Part shown: positions 18,130 to 39,410 of the stretch, in pieces
How positions within the stretch are numbered: the stretch's first letter is position 1
Layout: each line of letters starts with the position of its first letter
DNA from: a virus
Lineage: Duplodnaviria > Caudoviricetes
Length of the DNA stretch: 41,131 nucleotides
Virus record (IMG/VR): IMGVR_UViG_3300036713_000295
Span: 1-41,131 of that record
Strand: one strand, 5' to 3'
The notes under the pieces: generated by a model
Seen by the model: the letters and a program-made list of their open reading frames with translations, nothing else
Told to the model about the DNA's origin: nothing
Database searches by the model: none
Translations under genes and position numbers: made by a program

Positions 18130-19536
18130 CTATTCTACAGCCTTCTCTTGAGTAAAAAGTGTTGATTTTTCCTCTTTTCTACGCTCAAAGTAGTCTTTGT
18201 ACTTCTTTTTTTGCTCTCCCGTGCCATCTCTGTGCCTAATAATGTGTTTTGGATAGTAGCACGGCATATATCCAGCCCTTGCAAAGGCGGTTGATGCTTC
18301 TAAGTCCTGATATCCATGAAGAGTCATGTCCTTCCATCTAAAGTCATCGTATGCTTTATGGTCAATTGCGGCAAAAATACCACCAATATGTTCAGTAATC
18401 TCTATTAGATCGTCTCCAATAAGAGCGCTTCCAATTCTTAGAGCTCCTCCTGGGTTATCAATTAATCCCTCAACATATGGAGAAATATAAATCAAATGAT
18501 TTGTCTCCCACATTTTCACAACATCAGTCAGCCATCCATAAGTAATAAACTCAACATCGTTGTCAATTTTAATAATAATGTCATATTCGCTGTAAGACTT
18601 AATAAGATCAATTAAGTCATTGCTTGCCTTGGCAATCCCAACATTCTCTGCATACTCAATTACATGCTTACAATCAACAGTTTTTAACCACTTGGCTGTG
18701 CCATCTTTTCCATTGTCTGCACAAAACCAATCAAACTCATAACCAGCGGTCTCTTTCATTTCTTCATATGTTGTCTTTGAGTAGCTCAGTCTGTCGTAGT
18801 GAATTGTGAAAATTGCCACCTTGGGTTTTTTATAGCTCCCAAGTCTAATCCTACAATCAACTGGATCAAAGGTTGGAACATAGAGCTTTCCCAGGATGGG
18901 ATGATGATACATTGGTGTTTTAACTCTTTGAGACTTGGTGTTGTCATGCATGTAATAATCAAATGTAACTTTTTGCAACCTCTTAAATTTATATCCAGCT
19001 TTTGCAATTCTTACAAACAAATTCCAGTCAACAAACTTTGGTAGAGACTCATCCCATCCACCAACATAGTCAATGGCCTCTTTTCTAATCAGGGCAGAAG
19101 ATGTATCTATGTAGTTTTTTAAAGAAAGGAGTTGTAGATCAAATTCCTCAGAAACGCCCTTCTCATTATTGGGCATAAACCACATCTCTCCATAAACAAC
19201 ATCATAGCCCTTCTCAATCTCTTCTATTAAGTTTTTTATCGCATCTGGCCTTAGTTGAACATCATCATCTAAAAACAAGACATATTCTCCCCTTGCCTTT
19301 GACAGCCCAAGGTTTTTTGGCAGGGGATCGCTACCAGAGTTCTCCTTGGTTTTTAAATACTTAATTTTCTTATCTTTAATAGACTCAACATACTTCCTAG
19401 TGCCATCAGTAGAGCAATCGTCAACTATGATGTGCTCGTAGTTGGTGAAAGACTGTTTTTGTACTGATTTTATGCAAAGGGGGAGAAAATTTTTAGACCT
19501 ATTAAAAGTTGAAGTGATGATTGAAACTTTAGGCAT
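18130..19536 (-). CDS. Tandem two-domain GT2 glycosyltransferase
   Basis: Domain 1: VSIITSTFNR, IVDDCSTDGT, FLDDD, GGWDE. Domain 2: VAIFTIHYDR, ADNG, NVGIAKASN, KIDND. Confidence 0.9.
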   Translation of the reverse strand: MPKVSIITSTFNRSKNFLPLCIKSVQKQSFTNYEHIIVDDCSTDGTRKYVESIKDKKIKYLKTKENSGSDPLPKNLGLSKARGEYVLFLDDDVQLRPDAIKNLIEEIEKGYDVVYGEMWFMPNNEKGVSEEFDLQLLSLKNYIDTSSALIRKEAIDYVGGWDESLPKFVDWNLFVRIAKAGYKFKRLQKVTFDYYMHDNTKSQRVKTPMYHHPILGKLYVPTFDPVDCRIRLGSYKKPKVAIFTIHYDRLSYSKTTYEEMKETAGYEFDWFCADNGKDGTAKWLKTVDCKHVIEYAENVGIAKASNDLIDLIKSYSEYDIIIKIDNDVEFITYGWLTDVVKMWETNHLIYISPYVEGLIDNPGGALRIGSALIGDDLIEITEHIGGIFAAIDHKAYDDFRWKDMTLHGYQDLEASTAFARAGYMPCYYPKHIIRHRDGTGEQKKKYKDYFERRKEEKSTLFTQEKAVE

Positions 19537-19544
19537 ATACTGCA

Positions 19545-19573
19545 CTTATAACACAAAACGCTACATAAATCAA
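19545..19573 (-). promoter_or_regulatory. Putative promoter for the glycosyltransferase block (leaderless)
   Basis: TTGATT-17 nt-TATAAG with extended TG; ATG 8 nt downstream; no SD. Confidence 0.5.
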
Positions 19574-28219: not shown

Positions 28220-28501
28220 TCACTCATCTATCGGCAAAAAGAGGGATTCTACAACCATCTTCTCAAAGCTATCTTTGGCATCCCTAAGGGCCATTAGGGT
28301 TTCAATTAAATACACAATCTTCTTGTATGACCTAGAGCCAGGGAGGGTGTCCCAAAGGCTTTGTTTGGCTTCAAACAAGCAAATCTCAATCTCATTTTTT
28401 GTCAGCTTATCAATGCCCTTCTCAAGCAACCTCTCAACCTCAAGCCTTGATACTTTTCTTGCCCCACCCAATGCCAATGGTTCATTTTTATCTATCCCCA
28501 T
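28220..28501 (-). CDS. Hypothetical protein
   Basis: 93 aa, coupled to the primase-helicase gene. Confidence 0.6.
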   Translation of the reverse strand: MGIDKNEPLALGGARKVSRLEVERLLEKGIDKLTKNEIEICLFEAKQSLWDTLPGSRSYKKIVYLIETLMALRDAKDSFEKMVVESLFLPIDE

Positions 28502-30051
28502 GACATATCTCCTGACTCTGCAATATACGCACTCCCTGGATTAAATTTAATACTGCACTCTCCGCTTGGACCAGCTTTTGTCTTAGCCACAATAATCTTC
28601 CCCTCATCTTCCTGCCTGGTGACAATCAAAACCTCTGTGCTGTCCTGCTTAAATGCAGATGAGCCAGAAATTGAATTAAAGTCCAGGGCTCCCTTCTTGC
28701 TAGACTTCTTGTTAATATGGGCAACCATAAGAACTGCCAAGTTATTGAGCTTTGCCATAGTGGCAATCTCCTTCATGGCGTTGGATTGCTCCTGTATATA
28801 TCCCTCACCAGTAGAAATGAAATATGAAATGTGATCTATAATCACAAGGTCATATCTATCAAGTGTTTTAATGATATTTTTTAACTTATCTATTGTTTTA
28901 ATTCCTGAAGTAAAAACATCTATCCCATCGCTTAAATTAAAAATCTTCTTCCTGGTTTCTTCAAATGTGCCCCTGTGCTTAATAGATGCTAGGTAATCAA
29001 CAATAGTATTTCCAGGCTCGAGGGCAAAGTATAAAACCCTCTTTCCCTGTTTTGCAACATTCATTGAGAAATTACAACAAATGGCGGTCTTACCCACGTT
29101 GGTTTCTCCAGTAATTGTATATACATGTCCTGGTAGAAATCCCTTTATGTAATGATCCAATCCCCTGTACCCGGTGCTTGGAGCCTCATCTTCCAGTGCA
29201 TACTCCATCATTCTCTCGTTGGCAACAAAGTTAAGGCTTTTTGGTTTTGAAAACTCCTCTGGGGTTAGAATTAGTTCTGGATGGTTTCTGGCATGTATGT
29301 CTCTAATACTCTCGTATGTTCTTCTAAGTGAATACTCATCTAATGGGGGGTCACATTTCACGTGGTTCCAGTATTTAACAGCCGGCCAGATCACTTCCTC
29401 TCCAAGCGAGTAATCTATACGGGCAAATAGGCTCCCCACAATCCTGGTTAGAGTCTCATTTCTGTCTCCTTTTGAAGCTTCTGGGAAATCATCCCCAACT
29501 GGTATAGAAAGCTCCTTTTTGCGGTCTTCTATCGCCTCTATGACATCATTTGGAACCCGTCCTAAGCTAAATGTGGGCCCCAACCTATCAAACACATACT
29601 TATTCTTTCCAAGTGAGCTTGGTGGAAGAATAATAACCCCACCATCACTTCTAATATCCACTGGGGAATCTTTGAGTTTAGCTGTGGTGCGACTGGTGGG
29701 GGTGTATTCATAGTAATAATGCTTGCCACCGCTAAATGGAGATGAAGCCACAATGCTTGAATCTAAACTCTCAAAGGGAATGTTATTTTCATCGCCTGTG
29801 TCTATATCTACGACCGTTAGGTTAGAAATTTCCCCGGTTACAACAGCAATGGCGTTGTATTTATCGCTCCATTGGGTAATTTCATCTTCTGTGGGAAGGC
29901 GCTCTTGATATTCTCTCCAGGTGGGGATGGCAGGCATTTTCTTAACCTTACCATTGCCCTCATCAATTAGTTTCCAGGGGATGACGCTCCACCCCATAGC
30001 AAGATATTTCTGGTATGTTTTTTTGTTGATGTTTTGCATTTTTTTCACCAT
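28492..30051 (-). CDS. Bifunctional Prim-Pol primase / PriCT / DnaB-like (SF4) helicase fusion
   Basis: GWSVIP, VVDID, GGKHYYY, DIRSDGG, GDRNETL, Walker A GETNVGKT, Walker B IIDH, SGSSAFKQD, KTKAG; start at 30051 or 30039. Confidence 0.9.
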   Translation of the reverse strand: MVKKMQNINKKTYQKYLAMGWSVIPWKLIDEGNGKVKKMPAIPTWREYQERLPTEDEITQWSDKYNAIAVVTGEISNLTVVDIDTGDENNIPFESLDSSIVASSPFSGGKHYYYEYTPTSRTTAKLKDSPVDIRSDGGVIILPPSSLGKNKYVFDRLGPTFSLGRVPNDVIEAIEDRKKELSIPVGDDFPEASKGDRNETLTRIVGSLFARIDYSLGEEVIWPAVKYWNHVKCDPPLDEYSLRRTYESIRDIHARNHPELILTPEEFSKPKSLNFVANERMMEYALEDEAPSTGYRGLDHYIKGFLPGHVYTITGETNVGKTAICCNFSMNVAKQGKRVLYFALEPGNTIVDYLASIKHRGTFEETRKKIFNLSDGIDVFTSGIKTIDKLKNIIKTLDRYDLVIIDHISYFISTGEGYIQEQSNAMKEIATMAKLNNLAVLMVAHINKKSSKKGALDFNSISGSSAFKQDSTEVLIVTRQEDEGKIIVAKTKAGPSGECSIKFNPGSAYIAESGDMSWG

Positions 30052-30199
30052 ATAGCTCCCCAACTTAGGAGTTAAAAATAGCGGCAAGCTATCAAGTTAG
30101 GGAGCTGTATAGTGAAATAAATAACGTTCCTTTTATAACCCGCTTGCCCAGGGTTGCCATCTCAAAAAAGATGGGGGTTTTTTGTTTTTTACCATCACC

Positions 30200-32266: not shown

Positions 32267-32447
32267 AATATATTTTAAAGACAAAAGAAGAAAACCATTA
32301 GAAACAGATATGGTAGCCTCAGAGATAGTGAGAAAACTATCAGAAGGTGAGGATAAAACAACAATAATAGAAAACACAGAGGGAGAGGAAATAGTATTAA
32401 GAAATAAAGACGTACACCAATTTGAGGGATACGGAGAAGGATATTAA
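32256..32447 (+). CDS. Hypothetical protein
   Basis: 63-aa ORF in the operon. Confidence 0.6.
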   Translation: MQTKIYFKDKRRKPLETDMVASEIVRKLSEGEDKTTIIENTEGEEIVLRNKDVHQFEGYGEGY

Positions 32448-32448
32448 A

Positions 32449-32919
32449 ATGCCAAGAACAATAACAATAAGCGATGAGACATATGAGAAGCTTAAAGATC
32501 AATTTGTAGATAAAAAAGAATCTAAGATTAAGATTTATTCAAGAATTGATCCAAGTGAAATCATCTATAAATCAAACAAATCAACATTAAAAGAAGCTGT
32601 TGAGGATGCAAACTTAGAGGGTGTAATCCTAGATTATGCAAATCTAGAGGGTACAAACTTAATGGGTGTAAACCTAGAGGGTGCAAATCTAGAGGATGTA
32701 AATCTAAAGAATGCAAACCTAAAGGGTGCAAACCTAGAGGATGCAAATCTAGAGGGTGCAAATCTAGAGGGTGCAAATCTAGAGGGTGCAAACTTAAGGG
32801 GTGCAAGCCTAGAGTATGCAAACTTAAGGGGTGCAAACACAGAACATTGTGTGGTTAGTTTTGCGTCATTAGAATATGAACAAGCAAAACAATTTATAGA
32901 AGGATTAAAGAAATATTAA
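32449..32919 (+). CDS. Pentapeptide-repeat protein
   Basis: About 15 A-N-L-x-x repeats; N-terminal RTITISDETYEKLK is RHH-like. Confidence 0.9.
   Translation: MPRTITISDETYEKLKDQFVDKKESKIKIYSRIDPSEIIYKSNKSTLKEAVEDANLEGVILDYANLEGTNLMGVNLEGANLEDVNLKNANLKGANLEDANLEGANLEGANLEGANLRGASLEYANLRGANTEHCVVSFASLEYEQAKQFIEGLKKY
32608..32838 (+). repeat. 15-bp coding tandem repeat (GCAAATCTAGAGGGT)
   Basis: Encodes the pentapeptide repeats. Confidence 0.9.
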
Positions 32920-34195: not shown

Positions 34196-34332
34196 AATGT
34201 AAAATCTGCCAAAAACCAACAAAGGGAGAAAGAAAGACGTGTAGTAAAATATGCTTATCAAAGTTGAAAAGTAATAATCAATCTAAATGGCTAAAACTTC
34301 CAGGAAACAATGCTAACAAAAAAACAAATTAA
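34192..34332 (+). CDS. Treble-clef-type zinc-finger mini-protein, 46 aa (not in ORF track)
   Basis: MKCKICQKP...RKTCSKIC; ATGA overlap. Confidence 0.65.
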   Translation: MKCKICQKPTKGERKTCSKICLSKLKSNNQSKWLKLPGNNANKKTN

Positions 34333-34462
34333 ACAACTAATAGAAATGTACATGGAAGATATCAAAGCCAAGCACATCGCAAAGAAGCTTGGTGTATCTC
34401 GAGTAACTATTTATAACTACCTTAAAAAGTCAGGTATTAAACCTAATAGGAAAAGCAAATGA
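34310..34462 (+). CDS. HTH mini-protein (Hin/resolvase-type HTH), 50 aa (not in ORF track)
   Basis: AKHIAKKLGVSRVTIYNYLKK; stop overlaps the MTase ATG. Confidence 0.75.
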   Translation: MLTKKQIKQLIEMYMEDIKAKHIAKKLGVSRVTIYNYLKKSGIKPNRKSK

Positions 34463-35430
34463 GGTATTGCGACTTGTTCGCTGGTGTAGGAGGATTTAGA
34501 TATGGAATTGAACAAGTATGCAAAACCAGTGATGCCTTGGGAATTGCACCCGACAATAGATGCAAATTATTACAAGGGGTACAGTCACCAAAGGCGACTT
34601 GTGTATATTCAAACGAATGGGACAAATATGCAAACTCAGTCTATAAAAAACACTACGGAGAATGTGACAACAGAGACATCAGAGAAGTCAAAGCAGAAGA
34701 AATTCCAGAGTTTGATTTATTGTGTGGAGGCTTCCCCTGTCAATCTTTTTCAATCGCTGGAAAGCGGGGAGGATTCCAAGATACAAGGGGTACGCTCTTC
34801 TTTGAAATCGCTAGAATTGCTAAACAAAAACAACCACGCCTTTTATTGCTTGAGAACGTCAAAGGGCTTCTATCTCACGACAAAGGAAACACGTTTGCTA
34901 CCATCATCTCCACGCTTGATGAATTGGGGTATGACTGTCAGTGGCAAGTGCTTAACAGCAAGAATTTCGGAGTCCCCCAAAACAGAGAAAGGGTGTTCAT
35001 TGTCGGACATCTTAGAGGAACAAGTAGACCAAAAGTATTTCCTATCACAGGATCAAATGGACAGAATAGGTTATCAAACCATGCAATCGCTTGGAGTAAA
35101 TCGCATAGAACTGGAAAAGCACCAGAAGATTTCAAAAGGAAAAATTATGGAAAAACAGAACTAAGAATCAAGAGGGGTGAGTTTAATACAATAAATACTG
35201 GCGATGGCGGAGGTAATCAAAGTACCCAAAATTATGTTGATAAAACTAAAATACGCAAATTAACCCCTACAGAATGTGAACGCTTACAGGGATTCCCTGA
35301 CGATTGGACTAAATACGGACACGAAGGACAGGAAATTAGTGATACCCAAAGATATAAAATGATGGGCAATGCAGTAACCACAAATGTTGTGAGTGCAATA
35401 GTGAGTAAATTATTTAGCTCTTTACAATAA
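34459..35430 (+). CDS. DNA (cytosine-5) methyltransferase, main/alpha chain
   Basis: Motif I DLFAGVGG, IV GGFPCQ, VI ENVKG, VIII PQNRERVF, IX RKLTPTECERLQGFP, X GNAV. Confidence 0.95.
   Translation: MRYCDLFAGVGGFRYGIEQVCKTSDALGIAPDNRCKLLQGVQSPKATCVYSNEWDKYANSVYKKHYGECDNRDIREVKAEEIPEFDLLCGGFPCQSFSIAGKRGGFQDTRGTLFFEIARIAKQKQPRLLLLENVKGLLSHDKGNTFATIISTLDELGYDCQWQVLNSKNFGVPQNRERVFIVGHLRGTSRPKVFPITGSNGQNRLSNHAIAWSKSHRTGKAPEDFKRKNYGKTELRIKRGEFNTINTGDGGGNQSTQNYVDKTKIRKLTPTECERLQGFPDDWTKYGHEGQEISDTQRYKMMGNAVTTNVVSAIVSKLFSSLQ
34502..35164 (+). CDS. Nested +1-frame MTase partner polypeptide (beta-chain-like)
   Basis: 220 aa with no stop; AGGAGG 8 nt upstream of the ATG; carries PTIDANYYKG and SLSDILEEQVDQKYFLS, both typical of C5-MTase variable regions. 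Confidence 0.7.
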   Translation: MELNKYAKPVMPWELHPTIDANYYKGYSHQRRLVYIQTNGTNMQTQSIKNTTENVTTETSEKSKQKKFQSLIYCVEASPVNLFQSLESGEDSKIQGVRSSLKSLELLNKNNHAFYCLRTSKGFYLTTKETRLLPSSPRLMNWGMTVSGKCLTARISESPKTEKGCSLSDILEEQVDQKYFLSQDQMDRIGYQTMQSLGVNRIELEKHQKISKGKIMEKQN

Positions 35431-35460
35431 TGTAAACTATGGTGTATGTTAGATACACCT

Positions 35461-36018
35461 ATGAAAACAAAACATGAACCACAACTTAAACCTCTTTTAT
35501 ATTTGGGTATTAGTATTTTTATTTGTCTTGCTATTAAGTTTTTCTTTGAACCTACAACCACTGATTTAATCAGTCCATACGTATCACATAATTTCCATGT
35601 ACAAGCTCATTATCAGCCTGTAGAAACCACAGAAATCGTTGTATTTGGTGATCCAAGCTACTACGAACTACACGCAACAGAAAAAGACCGAATTATTCAA
35701 TATATCCAGGCTGTATTTGGAGATGAAGCATACAACGCTATAAAGATAGCTAAATGCGAAAGTAGATTTAATCCTGGAACAGTAGGTGATACTCACATAA
35801 TGACATATCACTCAGGAGAGTTGGTAGGAGACTCAATTGGTATCTTTCAAATAAGAACAGGTGGTAGTGATTTTAATAGGGCAAGAGCCAACGGGTTATC
35901 AGCAGATGAGTTTAGAACCAAACTAAAGGATTATAAATACAACATAGATTATGCAAAAACAATCTACGAACGCAGGGGGTGGAGTGCTTGGTACAACTGC
36001 ATGAACAAGGTTTTGTAA
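35461..36018 (+). CDS. Membrane-anchored lytic transglycosylase (SLT/lysozyme-like)
   Basis: N-terminal TM; IAKCESRFNP, SIGIFQI, NIDYAKTIY, GWSAW. Confidence 0.85.
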   Translation: MKTKHEPQLKPLLYLGISIFICLAIKFFFEPTTTDLISPYVSHNFHVQAHYQPVETTEIVVFGDPSYYELHATEKDRIIQYIQAVFGDEAYNAIKIAKCESRFNPGTVGDTHIMTYHSGELVGDSIGIFQIRTGGSDFNRARANGLSADEFRTKLKDYKYNIDYAKTIYERRGWSAWYNCMNKVL

Positions 36019-37931: not shown

Positions 37932-38232
37932 CTTTTTTGCTTTCTAGCATTGCAGATAATATAGCTAGGTAATTTGCAGAATCTATCAGGCTGTCTCTAA
38001 TGCTCTCATCTGCCACCAGCCTATCTTTATCTAATAGATTGCTAATCCTTGCCATCTTATCGGCTACTCTAATTAATATTGCTCTCTCTGGTGAAACACC
38101 AACGAGATTAGCAAAGTTAAAGTTCTTAAATGGGTTTTCTTTTGATGCGTAGTCGTGGTTTTTTCTCTCAACAAGAGATAATGCTTCCTTAAAAAAGCTA
38201 TCTAGATATGAGATGAATTCTTTTTGGTTCAT
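37912..38232 (-). CDS. DUF1599 / nucleotide-modification-associated domain protein
   Basis: RKNHDYA..NPF.NF, DKMARI, ESIRDSLID.ANY. Confidence 0.75.
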   Translation of the reverse strand: MNQKEFISYLDSFFKEALSLVERKNHDYASKENPFKNFNFANLVGVSPERAILIRVADKMARISNLLDKDRLVADESIRDSLIDSANYLAILSAMLESKKDARKNK

Positions 38233-38243
38233 CTTACAAGCTC
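38223..38243. repeat. 21-bp direct repeat flanking the DPPY MTase (downstream copy)
   Basis: TTTGGTTCATCTTACAAGCTC; 20/21 identical to 39401-39421. Confidence 0.85.
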
Positions 38244-39410
38244 CGCATTTATTCTTGATTCTGCTATTTTCATATACTCCTCGTTTAACTCTATACCTAT
38301 AAAATCAAACCCTAGATTCTTACAAGCTATTCCCGTAGTTCCTGAACCCATAAAAGGATCAAGGATTGTTGCACCATCTCTTGAAACTAATTTGATTAGG
38401 TATTCCATTAGGGCGATAGGCTTAACTGTTGGGTGGTTGTTTTTGTGTAAAATGTTTCTTTCATTTCCAGAACCAGTTAAAGAGTTTTCAAAGTTTTGAC
38501 TAGTAATATGGGATTTATGTTTCTCCTTCAACCCCTCACACCCTGCGTTTCTCTCACGCTTTGAGGCTTTGGCACAATAAAAGAATCTCTGGCTATTATT
38601 AGGAAACAACCCCACTACCTCATCAGATCCATCGTGGATGAAGTTAGCTGGAAAGCGACCATTTTGGTTAGTTTCTGCCTTAAACTGCTTATCTGTTGTC
38701 CATTTTTTTCTATATCCATCATCAATTTGTTTTTTAATGATTGCAGATATACCTTTGTGTTTAGCACCTTTGAAACTACTTAGTTTATCTTGTACTTGTT
38801 TTAAGTCGTTATTATTTTGATAATCAACCCGACTCTCATCTATATTTATTCCACCAGTTCCCCATTTAAGTACGTTCTTGGCTACTGTTTTCTCACTTAG
38901 GGGTTTTCTTGCTACTACAATAGGTTCATGTGCAGGTTTTAGAGCTGTTCCCCAGCCTTCCCATTCGGAAATGCCTGTTGATAATTCTCTAGTTATTTGT
39001 ACCTTTTTACCGAGTATTCCAGAGCTTCTACCCTCTCGTTCTTGGATACCTGTAACTTCTCTCTCATTCCCCTGCAACTTATCAACTGCCTTGCCTATAT
39101 TATGAGATTTGGGAAAACCACTGCCATACACCCACATAATCTGATCTCTTATCTCAAACCCCGCATCTTCAATAGCTACTGCCATGCGGTGATAGGTTCT
39201 TGAGCCACCAAAACTAAGTAGATATCCACCTGGTTTTAAGACTCTTAATGCTTCAGTCCATATCTCTTTTGAGGGTACGTCATAGTCCCATTTCTTGCCC
39301 ATAAACTTTAGCCCGTATGGAGGATCAGTAACAATAGCATCAACACTATTTTCATCTAGTGTTTTCATTGCATCAAAACAGTTATCAAGAATTAATCTCA
39401 TTTGGTTCAT
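38229..39410 (-). CDS. DNA N6-adenine/N4-cytosine methyltransferase (beta class)
   Basis: VTDPPY, HPTVKP, LDPFMGSGTT. Confidence 0.95.
   Translation of the reverse strand: MNQMRLILDNCFDAMKTLDENSVDAIVTDPPYGLKFMGKKWDYDVPSKEIWTEALRVLKPGGYLLSFGGSRTYHRMAVAIEDAGFEIRDQIMWVYGSGFPKSHNIGKAVDKLQGNEREVTGIQEREGRSSGILGKKVQITRELSTGISEWEGWGTALKPAHEPIVVARKPLSEKTVAKNVLKWGTGGINIDESRVDYQNNNDLKQVQDKLSSFKGAKHKGISAIIKKQIDDGYRKKWTTDKQFKAETNQNGRFPANFIHDGSDEVVGLFPNNSQRFFYCAKASKRERNAGCEGLKEKHKSHITSQNFENSLTGSGNERNILHKNNHPTVKPIALMEYLIKLVSRDGATILDPFMGSGTTGIACKNLGFDFIGIELNEEYMKIAESRINAELVR

Follow-up and report, generated by a model that had tools for sequence, protein, structure and literature searches.

A nested +1-frame gene places a TRD-like module in the motif I-II insert of a phage C5-cytosine methyltransferase gene

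M.EcoHK31I is a C5-cytosine methyltransferase that forms part of a restriction system. In the accessible text of the articles on it, the enzyme recognizes YGGCCR and needs both of its chains for activity, beta being encoded inside the alpha gene in another frame (PMC2836561, PMC3404938), and beta supplies motif IX, the sole TRD belonging to alpha (PMC2836561). The accessible text also presents M.AquI as a natural two-chain C5 enzyme (PMC3404938), and natural permutations of C5 methyltransferases are treated in the accessible part of PMC5944983. The nearest annotated precedent for the locus described here is found in Streptococcus phage MM1, whose orf13 and orf14 (DQ113772.1) are annotated as the alpha and beta subunits of a C5 methyltransferase. 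Another group is that of M.SPR, M.phi3TI, M.rho11s and M.H2I, which the accessible part of PMC2413257 describes as multispecific enzymes with tandem, exchangeable TRDs bearing the TL motif, a TRD hallmark. These Bacillus phage enzymes are single chains in which all TRDs lie between motifs VIII and IX and the +1 frame is closed. M.phiBssHII is said, in work of Sethmann et al. from 1999, to possess a functional extra TRD at its N-terminus, away from the canonical site, and this TRD reportedly belongs to the same chain and frame, with no overprinting. Finally, the accessible text of PMC11855218 reports the ShiLan insertion of actinophage methylases, an out-of-frame HNH insert that is stop-free in the host frame, and mycobacteriophage Druantia has a split gene (gp78/77) whose parts overlap by 23 nt and are not nested.

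The nested two-chain C5 layout is therefore already known from M.EcoHK31I and from MM1 orf13/orf14. What is new in the locus presented here is a motif I-II insert coding a swappable +1 module in a gene whose alpha retains a module of its own as well as motifs IX and X. A literature search that covered mainly recent, openly accessible papers returned no account of a TRD read out of frame from the motif I-II loop when alpha retains a TRD and motifs IX-X.

The window, that is, the whole stretch of DNA analysed, is a virus record of 41,131 bases in which a Pfam profile search recognizes terminase, portal and capsid genes. Its alpha gene (34459-35430, plus strand, as for all features of the locus given below) encodes a C5-cytosine methyltransferase of 323 aa (PF00145, E 5.9e-86) with motifs I to X in order: motifs I-VIII, then a TRD-like module of its own, then motifs IX and X. 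The catalytic PC and ENV are present, and the PCQ of motif IV (34735-34743) is invariant in 97/97 aligned alphas. The core of the alpha module (KRGEFNTINTGDGGG...YV, residues 238-260, 35170-35238) starts just past the beta stop and aligns with the TRD region of M.HhaI; residues 242-252 are the segment FNTINTGDGGG, in which the initial annotation had rightly seen a TRD-like element. A single match to this module exists in our set, the canonical module of L138 (E 9e-4). Motifs IX and X (35254-35388), with the motif IX sequence RKLTPTECERLQGFP, are single-coding, and the third position dominates their substitutions (40/14/201 by codon position). Modelled alone with AlphaFold2, alpha has a mean pLDDT of 79, with a confident core and a disordered stretch below 50 over residues 201-258.

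The parallel with M.EcoHK31I drawn in the initial annotation holds as regards a beta nested in another frame, but, set against the accessible account of that enzyme, not as regards motif IX: the window alpha bears it, and the window beta bears a TRD-like module instead. In addition, M.EcoHK31I belongs to a restriction system, whereas the ORF list and the Pfam search place no restriction nuclease gene adjacent to the alpha/beta gene in the window, so that we read the methyltransferase as an orphan phage enzyme. The arrangement of M.AquI is also different, since there a small chain carries the distal variable region with motifs IX-X, whereas the window beta stops at 35164, before motif IX, and the window alpha is complete to motif X. 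AquI-like variants do occur among the relatives: in L178 and L187 alpha terminates once motif VIII is complete, leaving the TRDs, IX and X to an extended beta, and P0050, P0074 and P0107, known from beta proteins alone, have a beta that continues to IX-X.

Beta (34502-35164) is a 220-aa protein of the +1 frame, fully nested in alpha as first described, and it matches phrog_16143 (E 2.9e-35). The perfect AGGAGG that had been pointed out 8 nt before its ATG is there (34488-34493), made by the Val-Gly-Gly codons GTA GGA GGA of motif I, with a Shine-Dalgarno duplex energy of -10.2 kcal/mol. When alpha was recoded synonymously with the codon usage of the window, the chance of a stop-free +1 frame over the ORF was log10 P = -4.3, and 3/20000 recodings reached 220 codons; in the 18 other genes of the window, the longest open +1 stretches measured 27-74 codons. 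Beta starts at the same offset as in the window in 28/157 loci, 96% of these 28 having a duplex energy of -6 kcal/mol or lower, and 56/157 loci have a weak Shine-Dalgarno sequence at their commonest beta start. Further Met codons lie inside the window beta at residues 11, 43, 140 and 144, and internal Met codons served as restart points for the beta of M.EcoHK31I. Behind its N-terminal module, the window beta contains a linker (residues 37-135, 34610-34906) that shares its DNA with alpha motifs II-VI and is predicted to form a disordered tether, followed by NWGMTVS (residues 141-147, 34922-34942) and by CSLSDILEEQVDQKYFLS (residues 165-182, 34994-35047), the post-motif-VIII element which in single-chain enzymes is in frame. 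Pfam and NCBIfam hold no family for beta (nothing in Pfam at E <0.03), Foldseek gave no match at E<=0.001 for a low-confidence model of beta, and blastn of the dual-coded block gave none in E. coli genomes.

To describe the family, we assembled 195 loci: the best 80 of 598 viral loci, 33 found with a beta query, the best 80 of 559 genome loci, phage MM1 and the window. The best-80 sets were chosen by similarity to the query, and near-copies among them are not independent. After nine unparsable loci were dropped (L085, L109-L114, L163, L174), the 186 parsed loci gave 172 distinct alphas. Looking for +1 stops in homologues, a check proposed at the outset, we found the +1 core open in 169 of these 172. 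Among the best 80 of 598 viral loci plus the window, the core +1 codons contain 0 stops/9709 (81/81 loci) and the codons past the beta stop 753/9492; the +2 frame at motif VIII is open over only 9-37 codons. The initial annotation had further stated that the LxDILE..KY segment is absent from the main frame, and indeed LSDILEEQVDQKYFLS occurs only in +1, as beta residues 167-182, over the end of motif VIII. The same pattern is present in 168/172 distinct alphas, whose +1 core is open and whose LxDIL is confined to beta; in 2/172 the reverse is seen, LxDIL standing in the main frame and the +1 frame being closed by stops (9 in L176 and 7 in L179), and the remaining 2/172 comprise one alpha with a single stop at the edge and one that is open but missed by the pattern. 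The single-chain enzymes of SPR, rho11s, H2 and phi3T have the element in frame and 32-41 +1 stops, and the beta motif aligns with their element and that of M.EcoRII (shuffle p 0.001); the version shared between the Bacillus phage enzymes and the window family reads LxEILE..VDEKYYL. Because the two patterns exclude each other across homologues and single-chain enzymes, the open +1 frame and the in-frame element are alternatives, and beta supplies the element.

The alpha and nested +1 beta of MM1 are homologous to those of the window. In both, alpha has kept TRD, IX and X: the window has a +1 frame open over motifs II-VIII that ends in LxDILE..KYFLS and an alpha devoid of the element, MM1 has an alpha with its TRDs, IX and X, and the MM1 beta ends in the same CSLSDILEE.VDE.YFLS element as the window beta. 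MM1 differs from the window by the absence of a motif I-II insert and by a beta of 141 aa without an N-terminal module.

The structure predictions point in the same direction. Beta alone gives a low-confidence model except at about 161-200, with pLDDT <50 over 55-116, but when the two chains were co-folded, as had been suggested, alpha and beta scored 0.81 versus 0.00 for the best control, a mark reached by 116/157 solved complexes and 2/215 mismatched pairs. The co-fold runs have at least 54% of contacts in common and a partner pLDDT of at least 45. Their tightest pairs join beta 141-147 to residues 159-164 of alpha, the strand of motif VII, whose coding DNA is partly that of NWGMTVS, and beta 171 and 179 to motif IX; the interface of the best run also includes beta 15-21, 23-24 and 32-38 (alpha partners not given), the fold of beta being uncertain. 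This result supports binding without showing it, because the two parts of a divided enzyme can score well through their resemblance to single-chain structures already solved. Together with the open +1 frame of the homologues and the codon constraint described below, it sustains the heterodimer first proposed from the sequence, and alpha and beta very probably form a two-chain enzyme. Its assembly might proceed as follows: translation of alpha would be coupled to that of an upstream HTH gene, the AGGAGG within motif I would serve to initiate beta, and residues 136-182 of beta would then add a strand to alpha motif VII, pack on motif IX and complete the small domain.

The N-terminal part of beta is read from the motif I-II insert (alpha 21-45, 34519-34593), a loop whose amino acids are unselected in alpha. 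Aligned with M.HhaI, alpha jumps there from residue 19 to 42, and so the odd insert noticed after motif I amounts to about 22 aa net. In +1, this DNA encodes a TRD-like module (beta 11-36, 34532-34609) with a TL core at 34547-34579, where HPTIDANYYKG is read just as announced. A lengthened motif I-II loop exists in 99/157 assessable loci; since 58/157 have no insert, it is dispensable. The inserts are mostly 15-60 codons long and fused to beta. In 22 disjoint pairs (877 codons), their differences fall 291/118/82 on alpha codon positions 1/2/3, and the synonymous share of the changed codons is 0.64 in +1 and 0.10 in frame 0, the reverse of motifs IX-X, where it is 0.09 in +1 and 0.86 in frame 0. 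The proposal that the main-frame insert is there for the sake of a TRD read in the other frame thus finds the +1 codon constraint it predicted (64% versus 10% synonymous). The alpha frame is open through 99/99 inserts versus 7.2 expected, a figure partly built into the locus parsing.

What the +1 inserts resemble was found by comparing them with the canonical variable regions of other loci: 79/98 match one at E<=0.01 (65 at 1e-4), whereas the control readings match in 1/99 (frame 0) and 0/99 (+2), and the 8 cross-frame pairs obtained from ten chosen examples and the matches of the window all keep the same codon phase at the DNA level. A TL-like pattern occurs in 63/99 +1 inserts versus 0/99 alpha readings, and 58 of these 63 have a +1 ATG upstream. 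The module of the window matches the canonical-site modules of L080, L145 and Pitbull gp54 (shuffle p 0.001), its best BLAST match being short and modest (E 0.002); against the variable regions of SPR, rho11s, H2, phi3T and EcoRII it gave nothing significant (p 0.09-0.36), and across the family 6/98 inserts match these characterised enzymes. Gp54 of the GC-rich actinophage Pitbull of Arthrobacter (L198:780-1778) has an unannotated 167-codon +1 beta of the same kind, and its alpha TRD reads CLDANYWKG. The codon pattern and the matches show that the motif I-II insert is selected as a +1 protein, one homologous to the modules at the canonical TRD site of other enzymes, and the N-terminal module of beta probably touches DNA. 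As far as sequence goes, the window enzyme has two TL-motif modules like the multispecific enzymes (beta 11-36 and alpha 238-260), but these do not stand in tandem between VIII and IX of one chain, one being carried by a second chain and encoded in the I-II insert.

Comparison of close relatives showed that this insert is gained, lost or replaced. The metagenome loci L204, L205 and L208 have no insert and, from residue 24 onward, share 93-96% identity with P0001, L204 being also without the Shine-Dalgarno site and the ATG in motif I, and the window module shares 23/26 residues with that of P0001, against 46/94 in the linker that follows. The two cores nearest to that of the window, L006 and L127, bear other modules. 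In 83/99 loci with an insert and 23/58 without, no more than 20 codons separate motif I from the first +1 ATG. Single-linkage clustering sorted the inserts into 35 classes; the clustering of alpha variable regions put 111/157 in one class, and L204 and L206 have a common core with different alpha variable regions. C-terminal extensions of beta can hold modules too (10/97 matches). Those of L058, L013, L135 and L148 contain TRD-like modules matching phi3T/SPbeta MtbP, and the beta of L058 has modules at both ends. On a quick core tree of 135 columns with many open forks, the module classes are more clustered than shuffled labels, yet scattered, with 18 changes for class N0 and 7 for class N1 (at least 4 forced in each). 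This scatter fits repeated exchange or loss, the order of events not being given; because the core tree is weakly resolved, our claim is limited to presence, absence and replacement, and does not extend to direction.

Combining these data, we consider it fairly probable that the enzyme is a heterodimer bearing an additional recognition module on a tether; it would likely be bispecific and serve against restriction. By analogy with the tandem TRDs of the SPR/phi3T enzymes and with M.phiBssHII, the N-terminal module on its tether of about 100 aa would alternate with the module of alpha in the DNA cleft, and the enzyme would methylate two sites, shielding the phage from host restriction enzymes. 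Two specificities are on balance what we expect. The main rival is a heterodimer of single specificity, in which only one module works, or both form a composite site, or the beta module aids affinity or dimer stability, and it appears unlikely to us: the alpha variable region is admittedly short, with that one match for its module, and the beta module sits about 100 residues away from the docking motif, but the same module classes are found at the canonical site in other loci, purifying selection on the +1 inserts argues against decay, and alpha modules can suffice, because the near-twins without insert keep theirs. As for the target of the beta module, it is similar to STISARYYKDG of L176 and L179 (p about 0.01), a sequence that in turn looks by eye like TLSARYHKDG of M.EcoRII. 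CCNGG/CCWGG is a doubtful candidate, no more than a guess, because the direct EcoRII match is not significant. In the window, CCWGG and CCSGG are not depleted (O/E 0.92 and 0.95), and GGCC, GCGC and GCWGC are (O/E 0.51, 0.53 and 0.42). Depletion over the whole window extends to GGCC, GCGC, GCWGC, GGWCC and GATC, with O/E of 0.42-0.65.

Selection on both reading frames of the alpha/beta gene was demonstrated by a test of single columns on 121 loci, those remaining of 161 with an ungapped core after thinning at 90% identity. In beta 136-182, 17/47 columns exceed the conservation expected from the amino acids of alpha, G143 being observed at 0.99 versus 0.14 expected and L171 at 1.00 versus 0.18, and the linker is weakly selected, with 3/88 scored columns (48-135) above synonymous expectation. 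These numbers make it very improbable that a single polypeptide arises by programmed ribosomal frameshifting between the frames: at motifs VII-VIII selection acts on both readings of the same DNA, which one chain cannot use twice. Five database proteins (P0013, P0015, P0078, P0109, P0115) do begin as alpha and end as beta, but they switch at differing points, as sequence errors or broken genes would, and are probably frameshifted or mis-called genes; beta has, moreover, its own Shine-Dalgarno sequence and ATG. We give equally little credence to the view that the insert conceals, in its other frame, a selfish or regulatory element with no role in methylation. The geometry of ShiLan, stop-free in the host frame with a real protein in another (accessible text of PMC11855218), is the same; however, that insert encodes a homing nuclease, whereas the insert of the window codes no HNH nuclease, is part of a beta without a Pfam family at E <0.03, and belongs to a set of short, beta-fused segments homologous to TRD-site modules. 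Least probable of all is a +1 ORF that is an unexpressed shadow of alpha's conservation, with which the linker mean (0.49 versus 0.33 expected, weakly above) and the Foldseek result would agree, but which the synonymous-site tests, the stop counts, the distribution of LxDIL and the codon pattern of the insert contradict.

The preferred reading, that of a heterodimer with a tethered recognition module, would mean that specificity of a C5 methyltransferase can come from a module of a second chain, on a tether of about 100 residues, encoded out of frame inside the SAM-binding region. It would also illustrate clearly how modules evolve within dual-coding DNA, and the roughly 35 insert classes would offer a ready collection with which to relate TRD sequences to their DNA targets and to engineer split methyltransferases. 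The beta profile matches 784 clusters at 50% identity (E<=1e-30), and because annotation usually records alpha only, specificity predictions for this large family of phages and prophages miss a module. A bolder proposal, to which we give an even chance, is that the beta N-terminus is a plug-in specificity socket that redirects the enzyme in trans and lets phages shuffle specificities combinatorially against restriction. A TRD cassette between motifs I and II would then be a meaningless loop in alpha, read in +1 from the start in motif I, and three slots (beta N-terminus, beta C-terminus, alpha variable region) would be separated by dual-coded blocks conserved as DNA. Such a socket would give a 5mC enzyme a natural recognition module that acts in trans and can be programmed.

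Concerning the assembly, runs X1 and X2 (one sample, which may be the source) show zero differences to the window over 34300-34940 and 35002-35500, and in them no single contig spans the alpha gene. Because of this lack of a bridging contig, and because the 3' variable region differs in another contig of the same sample, the exact pair of 5' and 3' modules could be an assembly chimera. The DNA of the dual-coded block 34915-35040 is conserved to such a degree that many contigs of unrelated metagenomes align to it with at least 85% identity, and it is here that assemblies break; this block is likely a recombination junction and a source of chimeric assemblies. Many of the homologues lie on contigs binned with Patescibacteria and others in Streptococcus and other Bacillota, bins being no proof of host.

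The neighbours of the alpha gene are a lysozyme-like gene on one side and, on the other, a small HTH ORF (50 aa, 34310-34462), whose TGA overlaps the ATG of alpha (ATGA) and which may take part in translational coupling or in regulation. At 38229-39410, the minus strand encodes another orphan DNA methyltransferase, of the N6/N4 class (PF01555, E 1.8e-41), and a pentapeptide-repeat protein with ANLEG repeats visible in its translation is encoded at 32422-32919 (+). Finally, the minus strand of the window encodes a Prim-Pol/DnaB helicase fusion (28492-30087) and a family 2 glycosyltransferase (18130-19545), the gene of the latter adjoining the capsid gene.
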